Below are positions 10,096 to 46,137 of a stretch of 64,000 nt of DNA, in pieces; position 1 is the stretch's first letter; each line of letters begins with the position of its first letter. Source of the stretch: an uncultured Candidatus Saccharibacteria bacterium (lineage in GTDB: Bacteria > Patescibacteriota > Minisyncoccia > Phycocordibacterales > WO2-35-19); NCBI GenBank assembly GCA_964440955.1, contig CAYTTP010000001.1:14388-78387 (forward strand), read 5' to 3'. The notes under the pieces are model-generated. The model worked only from the letters and a program-made list of their open reading frames with translations, was not told where the DNA came from and did not search any database. The position numbers and the translations under genes are program-made.

Positions 10096-10134
10096 CCCCC
10101 TCTCTTGTTGTGAGAGAGGGGGTTAGGGGGTGAG
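10096..10134. repeat. GC-rich palindromic repeat (family copy): ccccctctct…agagaggggg…gggggtgag
   Basis: A hairpin-forming GC-rich island in AT-rich intergenic DNA between rplX and rplE. It ends with the family tail GGGGTGAG. Confidence 0.6.
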
Positions 10135-10350
10135 TTATTGTTTCTTAACGTTCGATACGTGTATTGGTGTTGCTTGTTCAACGATCTTTCCTTTCTCACC
10201 CTGCTTTCGCGCTCTGCGGTGCAATTTTTTAATGTTTACACCATCAATCAAGACAAGAGAAAGTTTTGGAAATGCTTTCACTACTGGACCGGACTTGCCC
10301 TTGTCTTTGCCGGTTATCACTATTACTTTGTCTCCTTTTTTGATTTTCAT
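10135..10350 (-). CDS. rplX: 50S ribosomal protein L24
   Basis: 71 aa with a KOW motif (MKIKKGDKVIVITGKDKGK). Confidence 0.9.
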   Translation of the reverse strand: MKIKKGDKVIVITGKDKGKSGPVVKAFPKLSLVLIDGVNIKKLHRRARKQGEKGKIVEQATPIHVSNVKKQ

Positions 10351-10395
10351 GTTTTTATTCGTGTCATTCGCGCAAATCCGTGGATTGGTGTCGGG

Positions 10396-10773
10396 TTAAA
10401 TAATTTCCGGCGCCAAAGTAACGATCGCCTGGTGTCCAGCTTCTGCTATTTCCCTTGGGATCGGACCAAAAACACGACCAGCCTTTGGCAAGATTTCACC
10501 TTTCTTTTGTTCAACTACAATCACCGCATTTTCATCGAAACGAATGTACGACCCATCCTTACGGCGAAGTGGAGACTTTTGTCTCACCACCATCCCAAGC
10601 AAGACCGCCTTCTTCTTGACCTCTTTTCGGGGCTCAGCCTTTTGAACCGAAAATATTACCAACTCACCTATTTTGGCATATCTTTTTTTTGAGCTACCGA
10701 GTATTTTGAAAATGCGCCCGATTTTCGCTCCGGAATTATCTACCACTTTGACGATTGATCGAGGCTGAATCAT
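10396..10773 (-). CDS. rplN: 50S ribosomal protein L14
   Basis: MIQPRSIVKVVDNSGAK… is the classic L14 N-terminus. Confidence 0.9.
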   Translation of the reverse strand: MIQPRSIVKVVDNSGAKIGRIFKILGSSKKRYAKIGELVIFSVQKAEPRKEVKKKAVLLGMVVRQKSPLRRKDGSYIRFDENAVIVVEQKKGEILPKAGRVFGPIPREIAEAGHQAIVTLAPEII

Positions 10774-10788
10774 TTTAGTAAATTTAAA

Positions 10789-11049
10789 TTAAATGACGAT
10801 GAAGTGCTTGGTCTTTGAAATCGGCCTTGTTTCTCGTATTTCGACCTTGTCGCCCATTTGCTTCACATTGCCAACATCGTGGGCTTTGTATTTTTTGTTC
10901 ACTTTGTAGTACTTCTTGTACTTTGGGTGTTTAACAAAACGCACCACATCAACAACTACCGTGTCTTTCATCTTGTTCGACACGACTACCCCTCGGAGTA
11001 CTTTGCCTCCGACTTTGGTATTTTGCGTTTTTTGAGCCGTTTTTTTCAT
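10789..11049 (-). CDS. rpsQ: 30S ribosomal protein S17
   Basis: 86 aa, …[16 protein letters not shown]…. Confidence 0.85.
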
Positions 11050-11090
11050 TGTTTACAAGTTCTATAAATCTACACAAATTTTCAAAATTA

Positions 11091-11510
11091 TCAAGCGCGC
11101 GCGACCCCCTTTGCTTTTACCGGCAATTTGGTGCCACCTTTGCGAAGAGCTTCAAGACCAACTGCCGCAGTAACACCGTCAACCTCAAACATGATCTGTC
11201 CTGGCAAAACCCTAGCGCAATACCCTTCGATATCACCCTTACCTTTACCCATTTTTACTTCCGCTGGCTTTTTGGTGAAAGGCATGTCTGGGAAAATACG
11301 AATCCAAACGCGACCGGTTTTGCCGACCGCACGACTGATAGCCTTTCTGGCTGATTCGATTTGGTTTGAAGTTATCCTAGCTGCGGTGAGCGCTTTGAGC
11401 CCGTATGAACCAAAAGCTACGGTGATACCGCGAGTTGCTGGAGAAACACGAGCCGGATTGCGTCGCAAGGTCTGCCACTTTCGATATTTTACTTTTTTAG
11501 GAAACAGCAT
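11091..11510 (-). CDS. rplP: 50S ribosomal protein L16
   Basis: MLFPKKVKYRKWQTLRR… There is only a 42 bp gap to rpsQ and no L29 gene between them. Confidence 0.9.
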   Translation of the reverse strand: MLFPKKVKYRKWQTLRRNPARVSPATRGITVAFGSYGLKALTAARITSNQIESARKAISRAVGKTGRVWIRIFPDMPFTKKPAEVKMGKGKGDIEGYCARVLPGQIMFEVDGVTAAVGLEALRKGGTKLPVKAKGVARA

Positions 11511-11546
11511 GTTGGTAAATTAAAATTGAAGATTAAATATTGAAAA

Positions 11547-12206
11547 TTATTTTTTGGCAAAGATTTCACCTTTATATATCCAAACCTTAATACCAATTTT
11601 TCCAAGTGGCAAAAGCGCTTCATAAAAAGCATAGTCGATATCTGCGCGCAAAGTCTGGAGCGGGATACGGCCAACCTTTTTTGATTCAACTCTGGCCATA
11701 TTGGAGCCACCCATAATACCGGAGAGAGTTATCTTCACTCCCTTAACATCACGATTAGCAAACGCCTTTTCAATCATTTGCTTGACCACTCTCCTGAAAG
11801 GCAACCTCTTTTCAAGTCCTTCAGCTACCATTTGAGCCACAATCATTGAGCTCGACTCGGGCGACTTAACCTCTTTCACATCAATCTTAACCTCCTCTTT
11901 CACATTAAGCTTTGCTTTGCGAATAAAGCTCAAAACATCATCACGGAGCTTTGTCATACCCTCGCCACTTCGGCCAATGATAAGTCCTGGGCGTGAAGTC
12001 TCAATGATCACTCTAAAAGTTTTCATGTTGCGCTCGATCTCGATTGAGTTTACATACATACCCTTCAAGCGTTTGGTCAAATATTCGTATATCAAAACGT
12101 CGCCTTTCAAGTTTTCCTTGTATTTTGTTCTTACACCAAACCAACGAGATTTCCAGTCCCTGATTATGCCGAGTCGGTGTGCGTATGGATGTACTTTATG
12201 GCTCAT
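11547..12206 (-). CDS. rpsC: 30S ribosomal protein S3
   Basis: 219 aa with a KH domain (GLIIGRSGEGM). Confidence 0.9.
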   Translation of the reverse strand: MSHKVHPYAHRLGIIRDWKSRWFGVRTKYKENLKGDVLIYEYLTKRLKGMYVNSIEIERNMKTFRVIIETSRPGLIIGRSGEGMTKLRDDVLSFIRKAKLNVKEEVKIDVKEVKSPESSSMIVAQMVAEGLEKRLPFRRVVKQMIEKAFANRDVKGVKITLSGIMGGSNMARVESKKVGRIPLQTLRADIDYAFYEALLPLGKIGIKVWIYKGEIFAKK

Positions 12207-12229
12207 AATAAGTTTATTAAAATTGAAGA

Positions 12230-12577
12230 TTATTTTTTGACTGATATTTTTTCACCCAAAACTATTTTGACTTTGCTGGTTCGCTTTTTGATCGGATGAG
12301 CCGAACCTCGGGATACTGGCCTACGACGATGCAAGACCTGGCCCCCATTCACTTCGATCGATTTTACATACAAATCATTTATATCCAAACCGACATTTTT
12401 GGCATTTGCAACAGCTGACTGCAAAAGTTTATTGAGTGGAGTGCTTGCTCTCTTCACGATCACTTGCAACCTTGCTTCAGCTTCCGATATTTTTTTACCT
12501 CGAAGCGCATCAGCAACAACCCTCACCTTACGAGGTGATTGTCGGTAGTCGTTGAGTTGTGCTGTTACTTCTTTCAT
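12230..12577 (-). CDS. rplV: 50S ribosomal protein L22
   Basis: 115 aa, …SPRKVRVVADALRGK…. Confidence 0.85.
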   Translation of the reverse strand: MKEVTAQLNDYRQSPRKVRVVADALRGKKISEAEARLQVIVKRASTPLNKLLQSAVANAKNVGLDINDLYVKSIEVNGGQVLHRRRPVSRGSAHPIKKRTSKVKIVLGEKISVKK

Positions 12578-12631
12578 TTTCTTGTATTTATATTTGGGCC
12601 ATTCGTGTCAATTTGTGTATTAGGGTCAAAT

Positions 12632-12976
12632 CTATTTCTTCGCTCCTTCTGAGGCAGTCTTGGCTGCCTTCGCTGCGTTAAGCTCTGCCTCCTTCTTCTT
12701 CGCTTCCAATTCCTTTTGCATCTTACCTCCGTGTTTGTTGAACTTACGAGTCAGAGAAAATTCACCCAAGCGGTGGCCAACCATATCTTCAGAAACAAGT
12801 ACTTCAATATGTTCACGGCCATTGTGAACACCAAAAATAAAGCCAACCATTTCAGGCGCGATGACGCAGGCTCTCGACCAAGTTTTTATAACCCCAGTTT
12901 CCTGTGGCTTCTTACCTTCTATCTTTTTCAAGACTCGAGGGTCTACGTATGGTCCTTTTTTGAGTGATCTTGACAT
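12632..12976 (-). CDS. rpsS: 30S ribosomal protein S19
   Basis: [12 protein letters not shown]…HNGREH… with a Lys/Ala-rich C-terminal tail. Confidence 0.9.
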
Positions 12977-13045
12977 AATAAAAGCTCACACGAGCTTGGG
13001 CTCCATACTATACAAATATGAATCTGTTGTCAATCTAAAGGAAAA

Positions 13046-13084
13046 CCTCACCCCAGCCCTCCCCCAGATGCAGGAGAGGGAGCC
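13046..13084. repeat. GC-rich palindromic repeat (family copy, opposite orientation): cctcacccc…ccctcccccagatgcaggagaggg agcc
   Basis: Same family as the 10096 copy. It lies upstream of rpsS and marks the break between the L2 and S19 blocks. Confidence 0.55.
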
Positions 13085-13123
13085 AAAAAAAGCACAAAAC
13101 CCGCAGGCTTTGTGAGCTGCGGG

Positions 13124-13234: not shown

Positions 13235-13300
13235 AGCCTTTTCCTCCACTATCAATAGTATAACATTGTTTTACATAAATGTCCAGTGCTTGAAGCCCTA

Positions 13301-13327
13301 AACGCGGTGGGATAGCCCCACCGCGTT
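13301..13327 (-). terminator. hairpin terminator (aacgcggtggg-atagc-cccaccgcgtt)
   Basis: An 11-bp perfect stem followed by a T run, downstream of the 122-aa gene. Confidence 0.5.
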
Positions 13328-21118: not shown

Positions 21119-21539
21119 CTTAAGAAGTTTAACCAAAAAGTACGATTCATGTATACTCTACAAACCACTTAAGGATGAGATTGACTACACCCTCTCCCAC
21201 TTTCCTCTCCTACTACCTCAAGAAAAAATAATATTACCTTCTGATAAAAATAGTGACCCTTTTGAATTGGTAGATATTTGCATGGAACGTTGTCAAAGTT
21301 TAAAACCATTTATTTTAATACCTGGAAGGAAATTTGATATTTATGGTGCACGGATAGGACACGGCTATGGGTGGTATGATCGATTTCTTTCTAAACTTCC
21401 TCAAACATGGCTTCGAATTGGAGTAGGATACTATTCACAATTATCAATCGAAAAAATCGAAACAAAAATACATGATCAAAAAATGGACATTATTCTTATT
21501 CTAAAAGATCAGGATTGGAAAATTTATAAAGCCAAATAA
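21105..21539 (+). CDS. 5-formyltetrahydrofolate cyclo-ligase (MTHFS) family protein
   Basis: 144 aa with the IGHGYGWYDRFL motif (G-x-G-x-GYYD). Confidence 0.65.
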   Translation: MNIDNLRSLTKKYDSCILYKPLKDEIDYTLSHFPLLLPQEKIILPSDKNSDPFELVDICMERCQSLKPFILIPGRKFDIYGARIGHGYGWYDRFLSKLPQTWLRIGVGYYSQLSIEKIETKIHDQKMDIILILKDQDWKIYKAK

Positions 21540-21540
21540 A

Positions 21541-21572
21541 AACAAAACTCCGTTAAACGGAGTTTTGTTTTT
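21541..21572. terminator. bidirectional terminator between the MTHFS gene (+) and rplK (-)
   Basis: aacaaaactccg ttaa cggagttttgtt followed by T runs. Confidence 0.6.
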
Positions 21573-22057: not shown

Positions 22058-22089
22058 TCCTTTCGATCCCCCTCTTAGGATAATAGGGG
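22058..22089. repeat. GC-rich palindromic repeat (family copy): ccccctcttagga…taggggttaggggtga
   Basis: Intergenic, between nusG and rplK. Confidence 0.55.
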
Positions 22090-22104
22090 TTAGGGGTGAT
22101 ACCT

Positions 22105-22846: not shown

Positions 22847-22971
22847 AATTTTATGAGTTAACTAATAAAGTCTCCTAAAGAAAAACCCCTTTCGGGGGTC
22901 CTTCTCTATTGATTTGTAATCCCTATTATACTCTTTTACACCAACCTGTCAAATTACTCTTCCTCCCCTCT

Positions 22972-23006
22972 TAGGGTAAGAGGGGGCGAGCGTAGCGGTG
23001 AGGGCG
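22972..23006. repeat. GC-rich palindromic repeat (family copy): cctcccctcttagggtaagagggggcgagcgtagcggtgagggcg
   Basis: Intergenic, between the SIMPL gene and secE. Confidence 0.55.
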
Positions 23007-23031
23007 TTATTTCGGATTTAGCGAGAGTAGG

Positions 23032-28448: not shown

Positions 28449-28501
28449 GTTGAGCTAAACCTCCACCCGCAAAATAACACATTATAAAAAATTTAGCAAA
28501 C

Positions 28502-28525
28502 AAAAAATCCCACTTGGGATTTTTT
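28502..28525 (-). terminator. hairpin terminator after rplS
   Basis: aaaaaatccca ctt gggatttttt. Confidence 0.6.
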
Positions 28526-28527
28526 GT

Positions 28528-28560
28528 TCCCTCCCCTTTGGGGAGGGTCAGGGAGGGGCC
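28528..28560. repeat. GC-rich palindromic repeat (family copy): ccctcccctttggggagggtcagggaggggcc, abutting the rplS stop codon
   Basis: Same family. The final C of the repeat is the first base of the L19 stop codon on the minus strand. Confidence 0.55.
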
Positions 28561-28988
28561 TATTCTAGATTTTTTTCCTCACTAACTTCTTCCGATTCAG
28601 TTTCCTCTACTTCAGGGAGTTGTTGGATATTTCGCATCTGTCGGCGAATGTCTTTAGCTGCTTTTTCGCGAATATGATACAGCTTGGCACGGCGCACTTT
28701 AGAACGCTTGACTAGTTCTATTTTCTCAATAAGAGGTGAATAAATCGGAAAAATGCGCTCCACTCCGACCCCGCTTGCTACCTTGCGAAGAGTGAAAGTA
28801 CCACCCGCTTCCTTGCCGTGCTTAACCGCCAAACAAAGCCCTTCAAACTGCTGGAGGCGAGTTTTTGGTTTACCTGTTTTTTTATCCTTCTCGATAATCT
28901 TTTGGGTAACACGCACAGTATCCCCACTTCGAATGTCGAGGTCCTTTCTTTCCTTCATATTCACGTTTGAAATTTTTATGTTATTCAT
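28560..28988 (-). CDS. rplS: 50S ribosomal protein L19
   Basis: …GDTVRVTQKIIEKDKK…RLQQFEGLCLAVKHGKEAGGTFTLRKVASGVGVERIFPIYSPLIEKIELVKRSKVRRAKLYHIR. Its position directly after rplB is unusual. Confidence 0.85.
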   Translation of the reverse strand: MNNIKISNVNMKERKDLDIRSGDTVRVTQKIIEKDKKTGKPKTRLQQFEGLCLAVKHGKEAGGTFTLRKVASGVGVERIFPIYSPLIEKIELVKRSKVRRAKLYHIREKAAKDIRRQMRNIQQLPEVEETESEEVSEEKNLE

Positions 28989-32070: not shown

Positions 32071-32103
32071 GCTTCCACCTCCTCCCAGTTTTATACCACA
32101 AAA

Positions 32104-32140
32104 ACAAAAACCCCGCCGGTGTGCCGGCGGGGTTTTTGTT
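32104..32140 (-). terminator. GC-rich hairpin terminator downstream of rpsJ
   Basis: aaaaaccccgccgg tgtg ccggcggggttttt. Confidence 0.6.
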
Positions 32141-32158
32141 TTTGTGTCGTTTGCCTTG

Positions 32159-32207
32159 CCCCTCCCTCTCCTAAGTCTAGGAGAGGACGAGCGAAGCGAG
32201 GGTGAGG
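32159..32207. repeat. GC-rich palindromic repeat (family copy): cccctccctctcctaagtctaggagagga cgagcgaagcgagggtgagg, abutting the rpsJ stop
   Basis: Consensus-like copy with a CTAGGAGAGG core and a GGGTGAGG tail. Confidence 0.6.
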
Positions 32208-32208
32208 T

Positions 32209-32577
32209 CTACGCTATCTTCACATCAATGTTCACGCCACTAGGGAGTGAAAGATTGGTGAGGGCGTCCATTATTTTTGGAGTCGGGTTTATGATGTCGA
32301 TCACCCGGCGGTGTACCCGCATTTCAAACTGTTCACGAGCGTTTTTGTATACGAATGGCGCGCGGTTTACGGTGTACTTTTTGATTTCAGTCGGCAAAGG
32401 GATCGGTCCTACCACCTGCGCATCATAGCGCAAAGCGGTATCGATGATTTGCTTAACCGAAATATCAAGTACCTTATACTCGTAAGCCATCACTCGAATA
32501 CGAAGCTTCGAAACAGCTTCCTCCTTTTTCTTTGAGACTTTCTTGGTTTTAGATTCTTTTTTTAACGTGCTTTCCAT
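32209..32577 (-). CDS. rpsJ: 30S ribosomal protein S10
   Basis: The C-terminal 100 aa match S10 (…RIRVMAYEYKVLD…VHRRVIDI…). The N-terminus carries a Lys-rich extension. Confidence 0.85.
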   Translation of the reverse strand: MESTLKKESKTKKVSKKKEEAVSKLRIRVMAYEYKVLDISVKQIIDTALRYDAQVVGPIPLPTEIKKYTVNRAPFVYKNAREQFEMRVHRRVIDIINPTPKIMDALTNLSLPSGVNIDVKIA

Positions 32578-34241: not shown

Positions 34242-36884
34242 TTATGCGGCCCTGCTTTGGAGTTGGTGTTTCGATACAGCAAGCTCATTGAGCCGACCAA
34301 AAAATTGTTCTACGGTCTCGTTTTCATAAGGCTTTATGTCATTACCGACATACTGCATCATTTGATTCATCCTCTCCATCAATGCTTGATGAGTTTTTGA
34401 AGCACCAAGTACCTCAACCGCCGCCTCATCCAACCCTGGTGAAATCGAGTTTTGGGTAAAAAATGTTATAACCGCCTTGGCCGGCATTTTTTTGACTGCA
34501 AGCCATTCCGGGTTTATTTCCCCACCCTGTTTTGGGCCGGTACCAAAAAATCCAGTTTTCTTGCCATACAAATCATCAAGTTCATATTTCAAATTGTTTT
34601 CTAGAGAGTTCGACGCCATCAAAGAGTTTGTATGGCGATCGACATCGCTACTCATTGATCGCACAAGTTCGAGTTCGGGTTTTGCTTTGGGTAATGGCTC
34701 CAAAACGGCAGGTGGCTCCTCGGCTTCTGGTATCTTATTTTTTATTTCTTCTATTATGTCCTGAAATTCTTTCATAAAATCTCTGAATTCAGGGCTACTG
34801 ATATCTTTATTTTTATAAAAGGTTTTTATTTTTTCTCCTGAATCTTGCAAATAACTTATCCATTCATCCAACTCTTTTGGTTTATCAAGAGAAGTGGAGA
34901 CTTTCATTTTTTGCATTTGCAAAAGTTCCAAAAAAACTCTCCTTTCCTTTTGGACCTCCGAAAAAGTATGGAAAACTTGATTTTCCATAGGATCCAAACC
35001 TTCTGGAGCTTTAAATGACTCGTCTGATGTTGCATCCACTATACCTGCCGCCTTAGGTTTTTGACTCAAAATCTCTTCTACCTTCACTTCGGTATTTGGG
35101 TTTGCTTCGACCCAGGCCGATATTTTTTTATTATTTTCCAATATCAAATCCTGCTTTGCCGAGTCAAGTCCATCGGCCTTTTCAAAAACACCTTCGATGT
35201 ATTTTTTGTCTTCAAAAAGCTTGGTGAAATCGAGTTTGTCACCTTGCCAAATCACCCCACCACTTCTCGTACCAAAGGCAGTCGGGTCACTATTGACCTC
35301 ATTTATCAAATGATTTACGACAAAAGTCTTTTGGGCTTCGCTCATATTGGCAAAGCGTTCGTTGCTCTCGAGTGAACCGTGCAAAATTTTCCAAAGAGAG
35401 TCTCCTTTCTCAACAGTGTGAAGCGCGCGCGAAGGGTCCTTCAGGATCGACTCATTTTCAACTTTCGCTTTAGCCAAGACTTCCTCTTTTGCTTCCATCT
35501 CCGATGGGCCAGTTGATTGAGTTTTTGACACTCCAACTTCGGTAGTTCCTGTTTTTGGCTTTTCTTCAAAAGAGACGCCGGTTTTTATGTTGCCGTTTAA
35601 CAGGCCTTCCGTTAACCCAACAATAAGTCCTGTACCCGCACCTGCCCCAATAGTGACCGCCGCTTTTTTGATTTTTGCGTTTCGTCTTTCTTTTTCATAA
35701 TACTCGGCTATAGAGCGTAGTTTTTGGGCCTGTTCGGCAAGCGAAATGTTTTCATCGTTTAGCACCAACTGCTTTTCCTCCTCCTCTTTTTTGTTAAGCT
35801 CTTCCACTGACCAGCTTTTCTTGTTTTCGGCCCATATACCAGCCGCAGTCGAAAAACCAAACGAAGCCGCTCTCTTTGCTACACCAAAACCACCGTAAGC
35901 GATAGCTCCTCCGGCTGTTAGCGTCCCCAAAGCATAACCAACTCCACCTCCCACCAAAACCAAAGAGGAAGTGATAGCAAACCTTGTCAATTTATCCTGT
36001 TTCAAAAACCAAGAAACCGCCTTGTTTTTCAAAAGCCCTCTCGCCTTTTCAAGTACCTTGTCTCCCAAAGTTTCGCCCCACACCTTTCTAAATTCCTCCA
36101 AGTATTCTTTTTGATCATTGATCAAAAATTCGTTTCGGGCTTCTTTGAGCAGATCGGGGTTTTCGCCATATTCAGACTTCATTTCATCTACAACCAAAAC
36201 TCTCGCCTGCTCGTACAAACTCTTAGCCCTTTCTCGATCGTCTACGATTCTTTTATGCTCTTCTTCAGTTGTCCCACCTTTTAGACTTTTTTTGGCCACA
36301 TACTCAAGCTCGGCATACCGGCTTCTTGCTTGTTTAAAATTTTTATAGGCTTCGCTCTCTCGCCAACCTTCAACATTTACCTGCTTAGCTTCTGGGACAG
36401 CTCCGCTTTTTTTATCTTGAGTGTCAAATAAATCAGGGTAAAGCGTCAGCCTATCTTTATTAGAAGATTTTCTGGAATTCTGTATTTCAAGCAAAAATTC
36501 AGTAAGACTTTCTAGATCAGCGTCAGGTCCCAAAGTAAGGAAACCTGATGTACCAACCATATCGTGAGCCGTCGAACCATTGGTGGATAATCTTACTTTA
36601 TCTATATAGGTATCAATCGGATCTTTCAATCCAGCCTTTCTTAGAGCATCCAAAAATGTTTCAAATAACTTCTCATTTGACCCCCTAGCCGCGTCTATTT
36701 CAAAACCCATCTTTTGAATCTCCTGCTTGACCTCCTCAGCATGGGCAACCTCCGCTTTGGTCCGCCCATCCGGACCAACTACCAAATCATCGTTGCTTAT
36801 ACCATCAAGGTTTAAATCTTTAATAGCCTGTGTGTCAGCATCACTCAAAACATAATGTGACAAATCATCTTTTGAAGGATTCAT
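34242..36884 (-). CDS. large hypothetical membrane protein (880 aa) with central glycine-zipper TM hairpins and a LysM-like segment
   Basis: Continuous 880-aa ORF with a coiled-coil N-terminal region and central GGGVGYALGTLTAGGAIAYGGFGVA and GAGAGTGLIVGLTEGLL segments. VEKGDSLWKIL resembles a LysM core. Confidence 0.6.
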   Translation of the reverse strand: MNPSKDDLSHYVLSDADTQAIKDLNLDGISNDDLVVGPDGRTKAEVAHAEEVKQEIQKMGFEIDAARGSNEKLFETFLDALRKAGLKDPIDTYIDKVRLSTNGSTAHDMVGTSGFLTLGPDADLESLTEFLLEIQNSRKSSNKDRLTLYPDLFDTQDKKSGAVPEAKQVNVEGWRESEAYKNFKQARSRYAELEYVAKKSLKGGTTEEEHKRIVDDRERAKSLYEQARVLVVDEMKSEYGENPDLLKEARNEFLINDQKEYLEEFRKVWGETLGDKVLEKARGLLKNKAVSWFLKQDKLTRFAITSSLVLVGGGVGYALGTLTAGGAIAYGGFGVAKRAASFGFSTAAGIWAENKKSWSVEELNKKEEEEKQLVLNDENISLAEQAQKLRSIAEYYEKERRNAKIKKAAVTIGAGAGTGLIVGLTEGLLNGNIKTGVSFEEKPKTGTTEVGVSKTQSTGPSEMEAKEEVLAKAKVENESILKDPSRALHTVEKGDSLWKILHGSLESNERFANMSEAQKTFVVNHLINEVNSDPTAFGTRSGGVIWQGDKLDFTKLFEDKKYIEGVFEKADGLDSAKQDLILENNKKISAWVEANPNTEVKVEEILSQKPKAAGIVDATSDESFKAPEGLDPMENQVFHTFSEVQKERRVFLELLQMQKMKVSTSLDKPKELDEWISYLQDSGEKIKTFYKNKDISSPEFRDFMKEFQDIIEEIKNKIPEAEEPPAVLEPLPKAKPELELVRSMSSDVDRHTNSLMASNSLENNLKYELDDLYGKKTGFFGTGPKQGGEINPEWLAVKKMPAKAVITFFTQNSISPGLDEAAVEVLGASKTHQALMERMNQMMQYVGNDIKPYENETVEQFFGRLNELAVSKHQLQSRAA

Positions 36885-38208: not shown

Positions 38209-38256
38209 CCCTTCCTCCTTCCCTCTCTTAACTCTAGGAGATGGGTTGAGGTGAGG
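38209..38256. repeat. GC-rich palindromic repeat (family copy): cccttcctccttccctctcttaactctaggagatgggttgaggtgagg
   Basis: Intergenic, between nusA and ppa. It has the CTAGGAGA core and a GGTGAGG tail. Confidence 0.6.
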
Positions 38257-38280
38257 TATTAAAATTAATTTTAAATCACT

Positions 38281-39867: not shown

Positions 39868-41031
39868 ATGAAATACAACATAACGGTCAAAAAACTACCC
39901 CAATCGGAAGTAGAGATTTCCTGCTCACTTGAAGCAAGTCTACTAGAAGCTGCTCACAAAAAAGCCTTTGAGATGATAGGTCTTTCCCTCGATGTGCCAG
40001 GTTTTCGCAAAGGTCACATTCCTCAAAACATCATTCTCGAAAAAGTTGGTGAGCGATTTATCCTCGAAGAAGCAGCTGATATTTTGCTCAAAGAGCATTT
40101 CCCTAAAATCGTGCTTGAGGAGAAGCTTGACCTCATCGGCCGCCCACAAATCGCAATCAAAAAACTTGCTTTGGGTAATCCATTCGAGTTTAGTGCGACA
40201 ATTGCGGTGATGCCTGAAGTGAAGTTGCCTGATTATAAAAAACTAGCTTCTGCCGTTATGAATGAAGCCACCTCCGCAAAAATAGAAACCACGGCGACCG
40301 AGGGAGAAGTGGACGAGGTGCTTTTACAAATAAGAAAAAACAAAGCACATTTTGATTGGCATAAGATGCAAAAAGAAAAGCCCCTCCCCAACCCTCCCCA
40401 AAAGGGAGGGAGCCAAAATGAAGGACACGAGGCACATGCTCATATTGATTTTAACGACGAAAAAAATCTACCAGTCTTGGACGACGAGTTTGCCAAAGCT
40501 GCCGGCAATTTCAAAAATCTTGCTGAACTAAAAGAAAAAGTAAAAGAAAATTTGGAAAAAGAGAAAGAGTTGAAAAATATCGAAAAGCGACGAGCCAAAA
40601 TATTGGACCAATTGGTCGAGGCAACCAAAATAGATGTACCAAAGATTTTGGTAGAGAGTGAAATAGATAAGTCGCTCGCCCAAATGAAAGACAGCGTCAC
40701 TCAAATGGGCCTCACTTGGGAAGCTTATCTTTCAAACTCAATCAAAGATGAGCAAAAAAACAAGGACAGCAAGGAAGTGATAGCCGAAGCTGAAGCCAAA
40801 TTGCGCGAAGATCTAAAAGAAAGTGCTCTCAAAAAAGCCAAGACCCAACTCATCTTCAATGAGATCGCCACCAAAGAAAATATAAAAATTGACGAAACCG
40901 TCCTCCAAAACGAAGTCCAAACCCTTCTCACTCACTACCCTGATGCTAAGGAAGAATCGGCTCGTATTTACGTCTCCACCATCCTCATGAATTCCGAAGT
41001 CTTAAAACTACTCGAAAAAGCCTCTGACTAA
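39868..41031 (+). CDS. tig: trigger factor (short form, apparently without a PPIase domain), with a GC-rich repeat inserted in frame
   Basis: N-terminal ribosome-binding region (…VPGFRKGHIPQNIILEK…) and a C-terminal TF domain. The segment 40381-40414 cccctccccaaccctccccaaaagggagggagcc encodes KPLPNPPQKGGS within the ORF. Confidence 0.75.
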   Translation: MKYNITVKKLPQSEVEISCSLEASLLEAAHKKAFEMIGLSLDVPGFRKGHIPQNIILEKVGERFILEEAADILLKEHFPKIVLEEKLDLIGRPQIAIKKLALGNPFEFSATIAVMPEVKLPDYKKLASAVMNEATSAKIETTATEGEVDEVLLQIRKNKAHFDWHKMQKEKPLPNPPQKGGSQNEGHEAHAHIDFNDEKNLPVLDDEFAKAAGNFKNLAELKEKVKENLEKEKELKNIEKRRAKILDQLVEATKIDVPKILVESEIDKSLAQMKDSVTQMGLTWEAYLSNSIKDEQKNKDSKEVIAEAEAKLREDLKESALKKAKTQLIFNEIATKENIKIDETVLQNEVQTLLTHYPDAKEESARIYVSTILMNSEVLKLLEKASD

Positions 41032-41783: not shown

Positions 41784-42515
41784 TTAGATAACTAATTTAG
41801 CCAAAGCGGCAATTGCGGCGGTTTCGGCACGAAGAGTTAGGGGTCCGAGAGAGTGAATTTGAGCACCGTGAGCTTTGGCTAGCTCGACTTCCTTTTCACT
41901 CCAACCCCCTTCAGGACCGATGAATAGGACTGAATTATGAAGCTTGAATTTCGAATCATGAAATATATTTTCACCCTCTCCTAGATCTAGGAGAGGGTCA
42001 GGCGTAGCGAGGGGTGAGGTTGTATGGAAAATAAATGCCCCCTTCCCATAATTCATAATACACTCTTCATAATCAACCGACTCCCCCACCTCCGGCACAT
42101 CGCCCCTACCACACTGCTCGGAGGCTTCAATCGCTATTTTTCGCAAACGTTCCATATTTATATTTTTCTTCTCGCTTCTCTCCGAGATCGTAGGCACGAT
42201 CTTTGACACCCCTAGCTCGGTCGCTTTTTCAACTACCCATTCCATCTTGTCTTTTTTAACAATCGCCTGAAAAAGTGTGATTTTATTTTTTGGTATTATA
42301 CTCCCCCTCTTTTCCAAAACCTCTACTTCCGCCTCTCTATTGTTCAAAACATTGATGGTACAAACATATTCAAAACCACTACCATCAAAAAGCACGACTT
42401 GATTGCCAACATTATAACGAAAAACATTGCGCCATTGATGGACGATAACCTCATCATCAATTTTGACTCGTTTACCTTTTAATTCTGTATTTAAATAAAA
42501 CCTATGCAAACGCAT
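41784..42515 (-). CDS. rsmE: 16S rRNA (uracil1498-N3)-methyltransferase RsmE, with an in-frame GC-rich repeat insertion
   Basis: RsmE N-terminal PUA-like and C-terminal SPOUT motifs (…FIGPEGGWSEKE…). The repeat 41973-42019 is translated in frame as TSPLATPDPLLDLGEGE. Confidence 0.7.
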   Translation of the reverse strand: MRLHRFYLNTELKGKRVKIDDEVIVHQWRNVFRYNVGNQVVLFDGSGFEYVCTINVLNNREAEVEVLEKRGSIIPKNKITLFQAIVKKDKMEWVVEKATELGVSKIVPTISERSEKKNINMERLRKIAIEASEQCGRGDVPEVGESVDYEECIMNYGKGAFIFHTTSPLATPDPLLDLGEGENIFHDSKFKLHNSVLFIGPEGGWSEKEVELAKAHGAQIHSLGPLTLRAETAAIAALAKLVI

Positions 42516-42538
42516 AATTTTATGCTATCATTTTTCGC

Positions 42539-43132
42539 ATGAAAAACAAAGAATACAATTCAATACTTGTCCCAACCGTTATCGAAAAAACCCATCAAGG
42601 CGAACGAGCTTATGACATCTATTCCCGTCTTTTAAAAGATCGGATCATTTTTTTGGGTGGCCAAATTGAAGACACAATGGCAAACCTTATCATTGCCCAA
42701 CTACTTTTCCTTCAAGCGGAAGATTCCAAAAAAGACATTCACATGTACATAAACTCTCCCGGCGGCTCGGTCACTTCCACTCTTGCCATTATTGACACGA
42801 TGAAATTCATCAAGCCCGAAATTGCCACTTATTGTGTCGGTATTGCGGCCTCTGGCGCCGCCATGGTGCTCTCGGCTGGCACCAAAGGGAAAAGATTTAT
42901 TTTGAAAAATGCGGAAGTGATGATCCACCAGCCATTAGGTGGTGCTGAGGGTCAAGCAACTGATATTGCTATAACTGCAAAGCATATCCTTAAAACAAAA
43001 GACAATTTGAACAAAATGCTCTCTGAACACACAGGCCAACCTCTTTCAAAAATTGAAAACGATGTCGAGCGCGACTTCTTCATGTCAGCTGACGAAGCCA
43101 AAAAATACGGCATCGTCGATAAAATACTCTAA
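42539..43132 (+). CDS. clpP: ATP-dependent Clp protease proteolytic subunit
   Basis: 197 aa with a Ser (GIAASGAAM), His (MIHQPLGG) and Asp catalytic triad context. Confidence 0.9.
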
Positions 43133-43211
43133 AATCTTCGGGCTGGAAAAAGTTTGCAAAATATTGTAAACTCTAGGTGTTAACCATAAATCAACAAATT
43201 GAAAACTTATC

Positions 43212-44741
43212 ATGTCATTAAAATTAACGATGTTCCTTGCGGGGTTTGCCTCGCTTATAGGAATAGGTTTTGGATATTTCCTTAGGTGGATCATATCCCT
43301 AGGGCAAAAAGGTTCGGTTGAGCTCCGCATCAAGCAGATGGAGCTCCACGCCAGAGAAGAAGCTAAACGAATAGTCGAAGAAGCAGAGTCGAAAGCCGAA
43401 CAAACAATCAAAGAGTCACGAATAGAATTTAAAGAGCGCGAAGAAAAAGTAAAAAAAACCGAGGATAGATTGATCAAAAAAGAAGAATTTCTAGACAAAC
43501 GCCAGCTCGATATTGACAAAGAAGTCGAACACATCAAAGAAAAAGTAGCAGAGGTCAAAAATCTTCGGGAAAAAGCCGAAGCGATTGAAAAGCAAAAATA
43601 TGAAGAGCTTCAAAAAGTTGCTAAGCTTGGCGAGAGTGAGGCTCGTGAAATCCTAATCAAAGAAATCGAAAGAAAATCGGAAGAGGATATTTTGGTGCGC
43701 CTTCAAAAACTAGAGAGCCAAGGTTTGGAAAAGATCGAAGCAAGAGCAAAAGAAATACTTGCTATCTCAATCCAACGTTTTGCAAACTCGGTATCGTCGG
43801 AGATATTTTCGACCAGTGTCCCAATTGCTTCTGACGAAATCAAGGGTAAGATAATCGGCAAAGAAGGACGCAACATCAAAGCTTTTGAACGCGCTTCGGG
43901 AGTTGAAGTTATTGTTGATGATACACCAGGAGTCATCACCCTTTCTTCGCATGACCCAGTACGTCGCCAAATCGCCCGCCTCGCTCTTGAAAACCTAATC
44001 CAGGACGGACGCATCCAGCCGGCTAAAATCGAAGAAATGATAGACAAAGCCAAGCAGGAAATAAACAAGATAATGAAAGAAAAGGGCGAACAGGCGGTTT
44101 ATGAATGTGGTGTATTCAATCTTGACCCACGCATCGTCGCCATTTTAGGCCGTTTACATTTCCGTACTTCCTACGGCCAAAATGTTTTGCAACATTCAAT
44201 CGAAATGTCTCATGTCGCTGGTATGATAGCCTCCGAACTTGGAGCAAATGTAGCGATAGCTAAGGCAGGTGCCCTCCTACACGACATTGGTAAAGCAGTC
44301 GATCATGAAATAGCTGGTACCCATGTAGAAATTGGTCGCCGTATTCTCCAAAAATTTGGCGCCGACGAACGCATCATCCGAGCGATGGAGTCTCACCACA
44401 ACGAGTACCCGTATTCAACTCTCGAATCTTACATCGTCCAATCGGCTGACGCTATTTCCGGAGCTCGCCCAGGCGCAAGGAAGGATAGCGTCGAAAACTA
44501 TTTGAAGCGCCTAGGTGAACTTGAATCCATCGCTCTAAACCAAAAAGGAGTTGAAAAAGCCTATGCCCTGCAAGCTGGCCGAGAAATACGAGTTTTCGTC
44601 ACTCCTTCCGAAGTGACTGATGTCGAAGCTAAGTCCCTCGCTCGCAATATCGCTATCCAAATCGAAAACGAACTCAAATATCCAGGTGAAATTAGAGTGG
44701 TGGTGATAAGAGAATCCCGAACTATCGAATTTGCTAGGTAA
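43212..44741 (+). CDS. rny: ribonuclease Y
   Basis: N-terminal TM helix, a coiled coil, a KH domain (IIGKEGRNIKAFE) and an HD domain (LLHDIGK). Confidence 0.85.
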   Translation: MSLKLTMFLAGFASLIGIGFGYFLRWIISLGQKGSVELRIKQMELHAREEAKRIVEEAESKAEQTIKESRIEFKEREEKVKKTEDRLIKKEEFLDKRQLDIDKEVEHIKEKVAEVKNLREKAEAIEKQKYEELQKVAKLGESEAREILIKEIERKSEEDILVRLQKLESQGLEKIEARAKEILAISIQRFANSVSSEIFSTSVPIASDEIKGKIIGKEGRNIKAFERASGVEVIVDDTPGVITLSSHDPVRRQIARLALENLIQDGRIQPAKIEEMIDKAKQEINKIMKEKGEQAVYECGVFNLDPRIVAILGRLHFRTSYGQNVLQHSIEMSHVAGMIASELGANVAIAKAGALLHDIGKAVDHEIAGTHVEIGRRILQKFGADERIIRAMESHHNEYPYSTLESYIVQSADAISGARPGARKDSVENYLKRLGELESIALNQKGVEKAYALQAGREIRVFVTPSEVTDVEAKSLARNIAIQIENELKYPGEIRVVVIRESRTIEFAR

Positions 44742-46137
44742 GCTGATATTTTTTCCCCTCCTCTGGAAATATAGCTTCCACACCCACATAGTCTCGGATA
44801 CGCTGACATAGAAAAAGTGAAGATTTTGGTTCGCCCATAATAACAAAAACTTTTTTGAGTCCTGTCTGACTCCCCTCTCCTGCGTCTAGGAAAGGGGTCG
44901 GGGGTGAGGTCTTCACACTCTCGACAAACTCCACCAAGTGCTCAGAGTCCATGTGCGAAGAATACCCGTCCACTTTGGCGACCGTCGCCTCAACCTTTAT
45001 CTTTTCTCCGTCTATTTTTACCTCCTTCGCCCCATCTTCGAGCCTACGCCCCAGAGTACCAACCGATTGATAACCCACCATGATCAGGGTATTTTTTGCA
45101 TCTCCCAAAATACGTTCCTCGTGACTCCTTATCCTCCCACCTTCCGACATACCCGAACCGGCGAGGATGATTTTTGGATCTGGAGTATTTTCGATAAGCG
45201 CCGACTCTCTCGCTCCATGAGTCATTATAAGTTTTGGAAATTTAAAAATATCATCACCCGACTCGATTTCGTCCCTCACTTCTTTTTTGAAATCATGTGC
45301 ATATTTTTTATAAATACCGGTCACCCGAAGTGCAAGCGGTGAATCCAAAAAAACCGGCACCTCTGGTAGTTCCCCTGACTCGATCATTTTGTTAAGTTCG
45401 TACAAAATGACTTGCGTCCGCTCAATCGAAAAAGCGGGAATCACAATCGTCCCCTGTTTCTTGATGCCAGCCAAAATCAAATCTCTCAGTCTTTCCTTTC
45501 TTTGGTCTCGATTTTCGTGGTTTCGATCACCATAGACGCTCTCCATTACCATATAATGAGCCCCTTTGGGTATTTCTACATCCGGCAAAAGAGGCGATGG
45601 CGAGTTACCCAAATCACCAGTAAAGGCAATCGTCCTTGCCTCTTTGCCGCTATCGCAAGTAACAAGGCAGATAGCCGAACCAAGCACATGACCGGCATTT
45701 ATGCATTTTAGTTTACAATTTTTAAAAAGCTCTTTTTCCTCATCATAACCAACCCCCTCCCACAACGAAAAAGCTTGAGCAATATCAGACTTTTCATATA
45801 ACGAACCACCCCGCACAAGCATCACCTTATAAGCATCTTCAAGCATGGGTAAAGAGAGCTCTTTGGTTTCTATTGTCGAAATTATTTTGCCCCTAAAACC
45901 ATCGCTCACCAATTTTGGCACTCGCCCAATATGATCCATATGAGCATGAGTAATGATTAAAAAATCAATGGTGGTAGGATCATAAGCAAAGTCGCTTTCG
46001 TTCAATTGGTTTGCCTCCAAGTCGCCCTGGATCAAACCACAATCAACCAAAATCCTTTTATTATCCCATTCCAATAAAATATTGGCCCCAGTCGCTCGGC
46101 CAACTCCTCCAAAAAAAGTCAAAAATTTTTCGCTCAT
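44734..46137 (-). CDS. metallo-beta-lactamase fold / beta-CASP ribonuclease (RNase J-like), with an in-frame GC-rich repeat insertion near the C-terminus
   Basis: HAHMDH motif plus beta-CASP region. The repeat 44872-44909 is translated as TSPPTPFLDAGEGS. Confidence 0.7.
   Translation of the reverse strand: MSEKFLTFFGGVGRATGANILLEWDNKRILVDCGLIQGDLEANQLNESDFAYDPTTIDFLIITHAHMDHIGRVPKLVSDGFRGKIISTIETKELSLPMLEDAYKVMLVRGGSLYEKSDIAQAFSLWEGVGYDEEKELFKNCKLKCINAGHVLGSAICLVTCDSGKEARTIAFTGDLGNSPSPLLPDVEIPKGAHYMVMESVYGDRNHENRDQRKERLRDLILAGIKKQGTIVIPAFSIERTQVILYELNKMIESGELPEVPVFLDSPLALRVTGIYKKYAHDFKKEVRDEIESGDDIFKFPKLIMTHGARESALIENTPDPKIILAGSGMSEGGRIRSHEERILGDAKNTLIMVGYQSVGTLGRRLEDGAKEVKIDGEKIKVEATVAKVDGYSSHMDSEHLVEFVESVKTSPPTPFLDAGEGSQTGLKKVFVIMGEPKSSLFLCQRIRDYVGVEAIFPEEGKKYQLT

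Follow-up and report, generated by a model that had tools for sequence, protein, structure and literature searches.

BoxC-like repeats at stop codons and within protein-coding genes of a Patescibacteria genome

The window (the whole stretch of 64,000 nucleotides analysed here) carries a dispersed family of short GC-rich repeats, as its preliminary description had proposed. By their sequence, we assign these repeats to the BoxC class, also called PIT (potential intrastrand triplex) or TMECO. The copies are probably selfish or neutral members of this class, which may spread via DUF559, a small Vsr-like PD-(D/E)XK endonuclease whose gene co-occurs with such repeats in other genomes. The novelty implied for the family is not supported, as the "GGGTGAGG tail" noted earlier corresponds to the third strand of the BoxC/PIT/TMECO intrastrand triplex motif, known in E. 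coli and 262 proteobacterial genomes (Holder 2015, PMC4666352). Our literature search turned up no description of these elements in CPR bacteria or Patescibacteria, in agreement with the earlier claim, and the Patescibacteria host is new relative to the literature found.

Repeat copies in the window

Alignments recover ten GC-rich elements of 32–52 bp, all where the preliminary description had placed its copies (at least ten), while the fragment that it added at 54050 is weak, amounting to a GCGTAGGCGAGGGAGG-like stretch. In each copy, a loop joins a C-rich arm to a G-rich arm to make a hairpin, after which come a second loop and a G-rich tail that mirrors the G-arm. Five copies are intact; those at 13046, 22058, 22972, 38209 and 44872 are degenerate yet recognisable. 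The copies in the window exceed chance expectation. A loose pattern (CCCTC-N4-14-GAGGG-N0-22-GGNGRG) matches six distinct sites and none in 100 dinucleotide-preserving shuffles, and a strict three-strand finder, set to 8-nt arms with no more than one mismatch overall, returns five matches (10096, 28529, 32165, 40381, 41973) and none in 30 shuffles. Four independent assemblies of the window genome are 100% identical across the copy sites; the copies are therefore not assembly artefacts. The intergenic copies and their neighbouring terminators are:

10096..10135, + strand: intact short copy in the spacer from the rplX (L24) stop to the rplE start, with C-arm CCCCCTCTCT and G-arm AGAGAGGGGG, a TTA loop and the tail GGGGGTGAGT; the sense strand at the L24 stop reads TAA followed by CTCACCCCC
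13044..13084, - strand: degenerate short copy that follows a terminator hairpin and lies upstream of the rpsS block's promoter-like site
22066..22099, + strand: degenerate short copy; its extended C-rich end AGGT-ATCACCCC, to 22104, abuts the nusG stop codon directly (TAA followed by AGGTATCACCCC)
22963..23008, + strand: degenerate long variant with a GCGTAGC mini-hairpin, 27 nt past the stop of a SIMPL-family gene
28528..28561, + strand: intact short copy, CCCTCCCC / GGGGAGGG / GGGAGGGG, abutting the rplS stop directly (TAG followed by GCCCCTCCC)
28499-28528: canonical terminator hairpin, next after the rplS copy
32159..32210, + strand: long variant with a GCGAAGC mini-hairpin, abutting the rpsJ stop directly (TAG followed by ACCTCACCC)
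32097-32146: bidirectional terminator, next after the rpsJ copy
38209..38259, + strand: degenerate copy with tail-like blocks on both sides, beginning at the first base past the nusA stop
54050..54077, + strand: possible remnant GAGCGTAGGCGAGGGAGGCGGGG, of low confidence, upstream of a tRNA

Placement of the intergenic copies

Five of the seven intergenic copies begin 0–1 nt past the native stop codon (L24, nusG, rplS, rpsJ and nusA), despite 14–50 nt of free spacer downstream. The preliminary description had counted only two, near rplS and rpsJ. This stop-adjacent placement is new relative to the literature found. The C-rich strand is the sense strand in eight of the ten copies. Most copies had been described as lying at gene 3' ends, which stands in so far as most follow a stop codon and precede the next signal, but they are not themselves terminators. 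The window copies themselves bear neither terminator nor promoter features, a separate canonical terminator comes after the rplS copy and another after the rpsJ copy, and PIT elements in E. coli show neither promoter nor terminator activity (PMC4666352). The hairpins predicted for the sense transcripts have energies of about -9 to -27 kcal/mol (-16 to -27 in most cases), and several have z-scores of -3 to -5. The earlier proposal that copies mark breakpoints of the ribosomal-protein blocks is suggestive only: copies do occur at the interruption between S10 and L3, after L2-L19 and upstream of S19, but another lies inside the intact L24-L5 block.

Copies are present at some orthologous sites and absent from others. 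The nusA-ppa spacers of the relatives L005, L007 and L008 are empty where the window has copy 38209, whereas L010 carries a copy at the same rpsJ site as the window. Relatives also have stop-adjacent copies: L010 at the stops of rpsJ and RNase Y, L004 at that of RNase Y. Sites in common (the rpsJ stop, the RsmE loop, the beta-CASP loop and the RNase Y stop) occur despite protein identities of only 55–60%. Copies are more alike within one genome than at the same site across genomes. The long variants of L010 share CCACACGAAGTGA and those of the window have GAGCGWAGCGA, even at the common rpsJ site; the copies at 6711 and 10504 in L006 are 1 nt apart in sequence. No mobility event was seen among the four identical assemblies of the window genome or among ten assemblies of the L010 species, which are >99.8% identical at every copy, and no target-site duplication was detectable at the copies.

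The patchy orthologous sites, the likeness of copies within a genome and the lack of terminator or promoter features of their own lead us to read the copies as selfish or at best neutral DNA, not as gene-specific regulators. In this very gene-dense Paceibacteria genome, they would survive only where 35–50 extra bases are tolerated: just past a stop codon but before the real terminator or the start codon that comes next, in the gap that separates a terminator from a promoter, or in frame within loops of variable length, those of RsmE (disordered in the model), trigger factor and the beta-CASP RNase. The sites common at 55–60% protein identity could equally be ancient retained elements under selection and concerted evolution, that is, elements with a function, and near-exact placement at stop codons is unexpected for neutral junk.

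Such a function might be that of mRNA cis-elements, in which a post-stop hairpin shields the 3' end from exonucleases or modulates termination, the release of ribosomes or the coupling with the following gene, with the coding copies as by-products. We consider this possible but unlikely. It would fit the placement past stop codons in the window and its relatives, the common orientation of eight copies relative to transcription and the stable folding of the sense transcripts. Some E. coli REP elements near stop codons act in such mRNA roles. REP elements at most 15 nt from a stop codon reportedly lower translation of the upstream gene, according to Liang, Rudd and Deutscher in 2015. However, an RNA hairpin needs neither the conserved tail nor its mirror covariation, and purine-motif triplexes do not form in RNA (PMC4666352). 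In other phyla, stop abutment does not characterise the family (17/250 vs 11/250), relatives have the same genes without a copy, and a role of this kind would be senseless for the three copies inside ORFs. The inactivity of the E. coli PIT elements as terminators or promoters also speaks against it.

Three-strand anatomy and family identity

The consensus common to the window and its relatives, TCCCCTCTCC-loop-GGAGAGGGG-TTA-GGGGTGAGGT, resembles the E. coli TMECO copies, CCCTCTCCC-TTGA-GGGAGAGGG-TTA-GGGTGAGGG. The tail matches the G-arm as a mirror at 209 of 236 positions, against 124 of 236 as a direct repeat. A sequence scan found BoxC-type motifs in many phyla, and consistent T-A-A or C-G-G triads occur in 142 of 153 distinct matches when three positions are left free, a pattern that indicates three-strand covariation. 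The second loop is usually TTA-like; in the long variant it is replaced by a mini-hairpin of 7–11 nt that covaries (GCGAAGC, GCGTAGC, CACGAAGTG, GCCCGAAGGGC, GGCCGAAGGCC and others). This long variant is new relative to the literature found.

As single-stranded DNA, the G-rich strand could fold back twice to give a purine-motif triplex. For E. coli members, others have shown triplex folding in vitro, whereas in vivo footprinting did not detect a stable triplex (PMC4666352). The window copies may fold in the same way, possibly also in vivo. That the sequence instead forms a G-quadruplex/hairpin switch, or an i-motif on the C-rich strand, as a regulatory or replication-pausing DNA structure, seems improbable to us. 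The G-arm and tail do yield runs such as GGGG-TTA-GGGG-TGAGG, and a preprint sharing the same sequence words proposes a conserved G-quadruplex-hairpin-duplex switch in E. coli (10.1101/032615). But the triads hold position by position (G-arm A with tail A, G with G, the invariant A with T), which a triplex needs and a quadruplex does not, and CD and NMR on the E. coli element favour the triplex (PMC4666352).

BoxC, PIT and TMECO denote the same elements of E. coli and other Proteobacteria (Bachellier et al. 1990s; Hoyne & Maher 2000, 2002; Holder et al. 2015, PMC4666352). The window copies have their three-block layout and nearly the same sequence, CCCTCNCC(C)-loop-GG(G)NGAGGG-TTA or CCG-GGGTGAGG(G). 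Both are multi-copy and dispersed with no associated transposase reported, and both form inverted doublets now and then and lie at variable or rearranged loci. The differences lie in the host, a Patescibacteria genome of about 42% GC, and in the arms, which measure 7–11 nt and are often lengthened by A/T pairs to which T residues in the tail correspond. Whereas E. coli copies show no orientation bias, those in the window strongly favour a start just past a stop with the C-rich strand sense, and the loop-2 mini-hairpin of the long variant falls outside the N3 definition.

Association with DUF559 nuclease genes

The association of the repeats with DUF559 genes appears in both directions of retrieval. 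Retrieval by motif alone places a DUF559 gene 5–170 nt from a copy in 8 of 120 loci, and retrieval by protein similarity alone (79 DUF559 loci) gives a copy within 250 bp in 58/79 and on both sides in 41/79. Close to the DUF559 gene there are 140 copies in 37.3 kb, elsewhere 23 in 160.8 kb. The typical unit, of ~460 bp, has a DUF559 gene between two near-identical, inverted copies; 27 of the 41 two-sided loci show the arrangement TM(+)-gene-TM(-), and flanking copies are 79% identical within a unit vs 64% between units. The link recurs at E. coli ycjD, in Deinococcus, Picosynechococcus, Klebsiella and Neisseria, and in the relatives L010 and L006.

The repeat-flanked gene suggests an autonomous unit or a homing site. 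Given the tight linkage, solo copies and doublets may depend on the DUF559 gene as non-autonomous partners, or may be its homing sites, and the family could have spread in this way; the copies would then be mobile, with a role for the nuclease. The association could also reflect a shared preference of gene and repeat for the same unstable spots between genes. The 80 kb of the window genome examined hold no DUF559 gene, transposase or RAYT.

The repeat-adjacent gene belongs to the Vsr/DUF559 clan of nucleases. This clan has a precedent for selfish homing in the group I intron homing endonuclease I-Bth0305I (PMC3424549), and a role in very-short-patch repair has been proposed for the Caulobacter DUF559 protein VsrA (PMC12907096). 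Activity on BoxC-type DNA has not been reported, and E. coli YcjD is uncharacterised.

The proposed system of solo and doublet repeats with one flanked enzyme gene is reminiscent of REPINs and their RAYT (an IS200/IS605-type Y1 transposase). It is nevertheless very unlikely that the copies are themselves REP/REPIN elements moved by a RAYT. They share with REPs the form of short GC-rich palindromes, mainly extragenic and at gene 3' ends, often near stop codons, and the REP signature GTAG occurs in two of the three long-variant copies (22972 and 41973, within GCGTAGCGA) and in the weak 54050 remnant. GTAG is, however, not conserved: it is missing from the short variant and replaced by GAAG in copy 32159 and L010 and by GATTAG in L007. 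No Y1 transposase is found among the annotated genes of the 80 kb of the window genome and seven related loci; the co-occurring gene encodes instead the PD-(D/E)XK nuclease. Moreover, REPs are species-specific, whereas the BoxC-type sequence is conserved across phyla.

In-frame copies inside three genes

Three copies lie in frame inside genes, as first described. The three genes are essential, the encoded peptides are exact and the gene identities are backed by Pfam:

39868..41031, + strand: tig (trigger factor; N and C domains only)
40378..40415, - strand: intact short copy in tig, read as KPLPNPPQKGGS, residues 171-182
41784..42515, - strand: rsmE (16S rRNA U1498 methyltransferase family)
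41970..42022, + strand: long variant in rsmE with perfect 13-bp arms and a GCGTAGC mini-hairpin, read as TSPLATPDPLLDLGEGE, residues 166-182
44734..46137, - strand: metallo-beta-lactamase / beta-CASP / RMMBL RNase gene
44869..44912, + strand: short copy with one arm mismatch in the RNase gene, read as TSPPTPFLDAGEGS, residues 410-423

These in-frame copies too are new relative to the literature found; in E. coli, copies are reported as "always intergenic". The added peptides are Pro-rich, then Gly/Glu-rich, and several orthologs are gapped at all three sites. The RsmE loop measures 62 aa in the window against 44–49 aa in most of 114 homologs, the surplus being the repeat, and an AlphaFold2 model places the insert in a disordered loop (pLDDT <50 and no secondary structure at residues 169-172 and 175-192). 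In trigger factor, the insertion site is gapped in five of seven orthologs. Length varies at the beta-CASP site, where L006 and L010 have copies of their own.

The view that these segments are ancestral low-complexity linkers merely resembling the intergenic repeats is scarcely credible and is already contradicted at the DNA level: although all three sites vary in length in every relative and several relatives are Pro/Gly-rich there too, those segments are copies of each genome's own variant, the shortest homologs lack the segment, the tig and rsmE copies pass the strict three-strand finder, with one arm mismatch in the beta-CASP copy, and the rsmE copy is among the best preserved in the window.

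Equally improbable is that the copies are Rickettsia palindromic elements (RPEs), close analogues of these or a CPR-specific new family of that kind. RPEs are roughly 100–150 bp long. The window copies are far shorter, their defining feature is a mirror-repeat tail, a third block that RPEs lack, and RPEs are confined to Rickettsiales and unrelated in sequence. The sequence is also present in E. coli and in many further phyla, so the family is not specific to CPR bacteria, nor is it Rickettsia-like; length and wide distribution thus already contradict RPE membership. What survives of the earlier comparison is a likeness of behaviour, not of family: both are multi-copy palindromic repeats kept in frame in conserved protein genes of a reduced genome, with the peptide at a tolerated surface position.

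Anatomy of the repeats

The preliminary description had placed at least ten related GC-rich elements and one fragment in the window. Reading of 11 positions and mutual alignment recovered all ten elements at the following sites, whereas the fragment at 54050 is weak.

Positions of the ten copies and their hosts or neighbours
10096: rplX (L24)
13046: rpsS block
22058: nusG
22972: SIMPL-family gene
28528: rplS
32159: rpsJ
38209: nusA
40381: inside the tig ORF
41973: inside the rsmE ORF
44872: inside the beta-CASP RNase ORF

All ten copies share one layout in the same orientation, CCCTCTCC - loop - GGAGAGGG - short linker - GGGGTGAGGT, and measure 32–52 bp. The arms (CCCTCTCC, CCCTCCCC or CCCCTCT) are 7–11 nt long, with Watson-Crick pairing ranging from 6/7 to 11/11, and enclose hairpin loops of 3–10 nt, a few of which exceed 6 nt. 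The linker ahead of the G-rich tail, loop 2, comprises 3–4 nt in seven copies (TTA, CTG, TCA, TTG, TCG) and 9–14 nt with a mini-hairpin in three. This mini-hairpin reads GCGAAGC or GCGTAGC in the window, CACGAAGTG in L010 and CACGATTAGTG in L007, two of the seven related loci (L004–L010). Long variants with covarying stems also occur beyond Paceibacteria, as GAGCGAAGCGAG in an alphaproteobacterium and as GCCCGAAGGGC, GGCCGAAGGCC and GGCCGGCGAAGCCGGCC elsewhere. A mini-hairpin serving as a turn ahead of the third strand fits a fold-back model.

The pattern CCCTC-N4-14-GAGGG-N0-22-GGNGRG occurs at 6 distinct sites in the window, compared with 0 in 100 dinucleotide-preserving shuffles. A strict three-strand finder, which tolerates no more than a single mismatch over 8-nt arms and mirror tail together, detected five copies (10096, 28529, 32165, 40381 and 41973) and none in 30 shuffles; the remaining five (13046, 22058, 22972, 38209 and 44872) are degenerate, yet still recognisable. 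The sites are 100% identical in four independent public assemblies of the window genome (L001–L003, L011), which thus yielded no strain polymorphism at the copies, and no additional copy turned up in 16 kb outside it (L012, L013). An Rfam E-value search of the entire window returned no family on any copy. The G+C content of the window is about 42%, its GC skew is negative over the whole length, and RsmE homologs assign it to the Patescibacteria / Paceibacteria, the nearest non-self homolog being 61% identical.

Family identity

The G-rich tail mirrors the G-arm (GGAGAGGGG versus GGGGTGAGG, with a T facing one A). Across 25 Paceibacteria copies, tail–G-arm triads (G·G, A·A, T·A) account for 209/236 positions, compared with 124/236 matches under a direct-repeat reading, and the mirror rule also covers the A/T base pairs at the foot of the hairpin (AAGGAGAGGGG versus GGGGTGAGGTT). 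The window copies belong to a known family, the BoxC repeat of E. coli, for which Hoyne and Maher introduced the name PIT and Holder et al. (PMC4666352) the name TMECO. The published pattern is CCCTCNCCC-N3-6-GGGNGAGGG-N3-GGGNGAGGG, with TTA or CCG as loop 2, and was counted 23 times in K-12 and 3610 times in 262 proteobacterial genomes (Holder et al. 2015, PMC4666352). The window copies have the CCCTCNCCC / GGGNGAGGG arm type with the 3–6 nt loop, a few loops being longer, as well as the third G-rich block that mirrors the G-arm. K-12 copies such as CCCTCTCCCTTGAGGGAGAGGGTTAGGGTGAGGGT (PMC4666352) have nearly the same sequence as copies in the window and in the related locus L006. The long variant of the window, however, falls outside the published definition, in which loop 2 is N3.

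TMECO copies are described as ‘always located intergenically’ and as lacking orientation bias (PMC4666352). In contrast, 3/10 window copies lie inside ORFs, a departure from a reported property of the E. coli copies and not from a structural criterion, and the C-rich strand is the sense strand in 8/10, including all three coding copies. CD and NMR showed that the E. coli element folds in vitro into a purine-motif triplex, whereas in vivo footprinting did not reveal one (PMC4666352); by likeness to these sequences, the window copies may also fold into triplexes. New to the family are the patescibacterial host, the coding copies, the placement at stop codons and the long variant, and a literature search on such repeats in Patescibacteria found no paper.

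To survey other phyla, we scanned one genome per species (596 Gb) for CCCTCYCC-N3-9-GGRGAGGG-N2-20-GGGTGRGG and obtained at least 120 matching loci. The 93 matches listed include Planctomycetota, Bacteroidota, Cyanobacteria, Chloroflexota, Proteobacteria, Verrucomicrobia and others, among them an Acidobacteriota-type MAG and a Bifidobacterium. Chance matches to so short a pattern are expected in 596 Gb, but many loci are multi-copy and the free positions covary: across the at least 120 loci, the three free positions read T-A-A or C-G-G in 142/153 distinct matches. If this distribution is correct, a repeat regarded for thirty years as an intergenic structural curiosity of E. coli spans many phyla, including the Candidate Phyla Radiation (CPR). 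In a Bacteroidales MAG (L050:61-251), the same repeat forms a head-to-tail array with a 78-bp period.

The preliminary description had likened the copies to Rickettsia palindromic elements (RPEs), and this comparison holds for their behaviour but not for their kind. RPEs are Rickettsiales sequence families of roughly 100–150 bp. Like them, the window copies persist in frame inside conserved protein genes; by description, they differ in size (32–52 bp) and in range (many phyla). Of the REP / REPIN features, the conserved GTAG by the palindrome is found only in two long-variant window copies and the weak 54050 remnant, the position being GAAG or GATTAG elsewhere. No RAYT (Y1 transposase) gene, which REPIN repeats typically flank, was present in 80 kb of the window genome or in the seven related loci of 10–20 kb, nor any transposase among the window genes.

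Copies within coding sequences

Translation of rsmE, tig and the beta-CASP RNase gene bears out that three copies lie in frame and encode exactly the peptides first described. Pfam assigns PUA_4 and Methyltrans_RNA to RsmE, Lactamase_B / Beta-Casp / RMMBL to the RNase, and Trigger_N and Trigger_C to trigger factor. With perfect 13-bp arms, the rsmE copy ranks among the best preserved of the window; of its six reading frames only two are open, and rsmE uses one of them. In a 30-sequence alignment, the 17-residue insert falls within a hypervariable stretch bounded by the conserved FD.SG strand and by FIGPEGGW, where the shortest homologs have no residues at the insert position. This stretch comprises 62 aa in the window compared with usually 44–49 aa among 114 homologs. 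In an AlphaFold2 model of RsmE (mean pLDDT 84.6), residues 169–172 and 175–192 have pLDDT values below 50 and no secondary structure, and are flanked by strands 161–163 and 195–199.

For tig and the beta-CASP gene, we took orthologs from the seven related loci, which had been fetched via RsmE homologs and keep the gene order. Five of seven trigger factor orthologs have a 16-residue gap opposite KPLPNPPQKGGS plus a few residues, and the beta-CASP copy falls in a C-terminal loop of variable length. In this clade, trigger factor (window 39868-41031) has only the Pfam N and C domains and lacks the PPIase domain; a second insertion in the window protein, of 12 residues and within DEQKNKDSKEVIAEA, does not stem from a repeat.

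Repeats encoded within translation and RNA-processing proteins would, if the finding is true, repeatedly supply reduced genomes with loop variants of essential proteins. They may also mislead annotation, since Pro-rich then Gly/Glu-rich peptides could be mistaken for genuine protein features or spurious ORFs.

Recurrence in related genomes

A profile search with the window copies (nhmmer) showed that six of the seven related loci contain this element, with the consensus TCCCCTCTCC-TTnnnAA-GGAGAGGGG-TTA-GGGGTGAGGT. The RsmE and beta-CASP loops of L006 each contain a copy of a variant particular to this locus, the two differing by 1 nt; L010 has a copy in the beta-CASP loop, and L004, L005 and L008 also have copies in the RsmE loop. 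Among the 114 RsmE homologs, a regular expression for peptide signatures (for example TSPLTPLLAKKRG, APPPNPLPEGEG, SSPTPSLTTREG) flags 18 occupied loops, and judgement by eye gives roughly 20–25. The RsmE loop between EQCGR and GPEGGW also holds other palindrome-like inserts in other Paceibacteria (homologs P0002–P0120), namely ESLELKAKSLE...SSKLKPLS, LNHESRIMNH before LHNSYF, and GASTGANFHPKKLAYTPEVF; it therefore seems to gather several repeat families.

A long-variant copy directly follows the rpsJ stop in L010 as in the window, and none does in L006. In L005, L007 and L008, nusA and ppa are separated by a short AT-rich spacer without a copy, and the window retains an intact 24-nt spacer downstream of its copy. 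Similarity is higher among the copies of one genome than among copies that share a site in different genomes, as in the mini-hairpin module, which reads GAGCGWAGCGA in the window versus CCACACGAAGTGA in L010. Such recurrence fits repeated insertion at a few tolerant sites and, equally well, old copies homogenised by gene conversion. Of the hallmarks of a MITE, terminal inverted repeats plus a target-site duplication, the duplication was not seen at solo copies, the relatives (55–60% protein identity) being too diverged for flank alignment.

Placement after stop codons

The preliminary description counted two copies abutting a stop codon; this proved an underestimate, as five of the seven intergenic copies start 0–1 nt after a native stop on the sense strand.

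Junctions of stop codon and repeat
L24: TAA then CTCACCCCC
nusG: TAA then AGGTATCACCCC
rplS: TAG then GCCCCTCCC
rpsJ: TAG then ACCTCACCC
nusA: TAG then CCCTTCCTCC

In four of these five cases a spacer of 14–50 nt was on offer, and a rough estimate that assumes uniform placement per spacer gives a probability of <1e-4 for the abutment. The rpsJ stop can be taken as native because the rpsJ C-terminus is conserved. The L24 ORF (window 10135-10350) encodes only 71 aa and matches the 65-position Pfam L24 profile no further than position 31; since the ORF ends exactly where the repeat starts, the repeat may have truncated it.

The same abutment recurs in relatives: L010 has it at both the RNase Y and the rpsJ stop, and L004 at the RNase Y stop. 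Among 250 copies of other phyla, 17 lie tail-first and 11 hairpin-first within 5 nt of the stop of a long ORF, a weak bias that does not support abutment as a general family property. Stop placement is thus a trait of this lineage, or of very compact genomes, rather than of the family.

The copies are not intrinsic terminators, as no U-run follows the hairpin of any copy in the sense transcript, A-rich or mixed sequence standing there instead. The E. coli element lacks promoter and terminator activity (PMC4666352). Separate canonical terminators follow the rplS copy (28499-28528) and the rpsJ copy (32097-32146), and the 13046 copy is preceded by a terminator and followed by a promoter-like TTGACA...TATAGT. 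Sense transcripts nevertheless form stable hairpins with folding energies of about -9 to -27 kcal/mol, most of them -16 to -27. Given this stability, an effect at the mRNA level after stop codons is possible. Perfect palindromes of the A-run / GC-stem / T-run type at window 32097-32146, 28499-28528, 46595-46639 and 21538-21572 do not belong to the repeat family and resemble bidirectional intrinsic terminators.

Ribosomal-protein blocks

The order of ribosomal-protein genes was derived from Pfam and precomputed annotations.

Gene order around the copies
Minus strand, part 1: S10, copy and terminator, 133-aa ORF, L3-L4-L23-L2-L19, copy and terminator
Minus strand, part 2: a stretch of about 15 kb with two copies and with unrelated genes, among them nusG and L11
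Minus strand, part 3: terminator, copy and promoter, S19-L22-S3-L16-S17-L14-L24, copy, L5
S8...SecY block: 40 kb away

Three copies stand at the edges of ribosomal blocks and one stands within a block. That the copies mark breakpoints of these blocks is suggestive, the events being few, and agrees with the locally elevated rearrangement to which the E. coli element has been tied (PMC4666352). The E. coli instability may also bear on the fragmentation of ribosomal-protein operons in CPR genomes.

Elsewhere in the window, a TdeIII-type restriction endonuclease (54473-55255), an N6/N4 DNA methylase (55260-56834), LexA (56844-57470) and a small HNH endonuclease (57562-57861) follow one another in that order. 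A large protein without a Pfam hit (window 34242-36884), with orthologs in L004–L010, adjoins a DUF5663 gene and ranges in size from 880 to 1288 aa among relatives.

Association with a DUF559 endonuclease

The repeats are firmly associated, in many phyla, with genes for DUF559 (PF04480), a small Vsr-like endonuclease. In L010, a 116-aa DUF559 gene between tig and its neighbour is bracketed by near-identical copies (11843-11882 and 12283-12323), and in L006 two long-variant copies bracket such a gene (L006:1029-1496). In the sample collected by the repeat motif only, 8/120 loci (from at least 120) encode a DUF559 protein 5–170 nt from a copy, in different phyla; one of these eight genes has an internal stop, and 5/8 have copies on both sides.

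A reciprocal sample of 80 metagenomic loci was drawn by DUF559 protein patterns only, derived from a four-sequence alignment; one locus, 100% identical to the L010 query, was set aside, leaving 79 (L136–L214). A copy lies within 250 bp of the gene in 58/79 and on both sides in 41/79. Copy density is about 26-fold higher near the DUF559 gene (140 in 37.3 kb) than elsewhere (23 in 160.8 kb). Of the 41 two-sided loci, 27 have the layout copy(+) - gene - copy(-). The proposed unit, an ORF with two near-identical copies within about 250 bp, is thus present in L010, in L006 and in 41/79 unrelated loci; its median length is 464 bp, and its two copies are 79% identical, compared with 64% between units.

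The association extends to named genomes and plasmids. On Deinococcus proteolyticus pDEIPR03 the order is copy - gene - copy, the copy downstream of the gene beginning 3 nt past its stop, and the gene also adjoins copies on Picosynechococcus PCC 7002 pAQ6, a Klebsiella plasmid and an N. gonorrhoeae record. In E. coli K-12, where ycjD was the sole DUF559 gene seen, TMECO no. 9 lies downstream of it at a distance of about 170 bp (L134:1205-1761). E. coli inverted doublets, in which copy(+) and copy(-) enclose a short spacer, have the layout of the DUF559 unit minus the gene. The DUF559/Vsr clan is of the PD-(D/E)XK type and counts among its members the homing endonuclease of a group I intron (PMC3424549), and one Caulobacter member has been proposed as a Vsr-like repair enzyme (PMC12907096).

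Together, these layouts suggest that the DUF559 nuclease could mobilise the repeats or home into doublets. More broadly, BoxC / triplex repeats, an orphan family on record since the 1990s and spread over many bacterial phyla, might be non-autonomous copies or homing sites of a very small selfish DUF559 element of about 460 bp bracketed by two repeats, surviving in ultra-compact CPR genomes as in-frame peptides in essential proteins, a scenario that we put forward tentatively and consider possible rather than probable. No DUF559 gene was present in the window or the 16 kb beyond, and ten assemblies of the L010 species, all >99.8% identical, each have all copies and the DUF559 gene, which yielded no evidence on recent mobility. 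In open-access text, we found no paper connecting these repeats to DUF559 or ycjD. The DUF559 link, provided that it holds and is unpublished, is the most valuable result here. It provides the first concrete enzyme candidate for the origin, movement or upkeep of the repeats, with E. coli ycjD as a direct test case.

ycjD is reportedly mentioned in a paper on the eefABC pump. A search of E. coli found no clean empty ycjD site; the locus is variable beside the BoxC copy (L134:1163-1240, corresponding to E. coli K-12 1351162-1351239). The fabI-ycjD interval is broken about 10–40 nt from this copy in approximately 38% of 5426 complete E. coli genomes.
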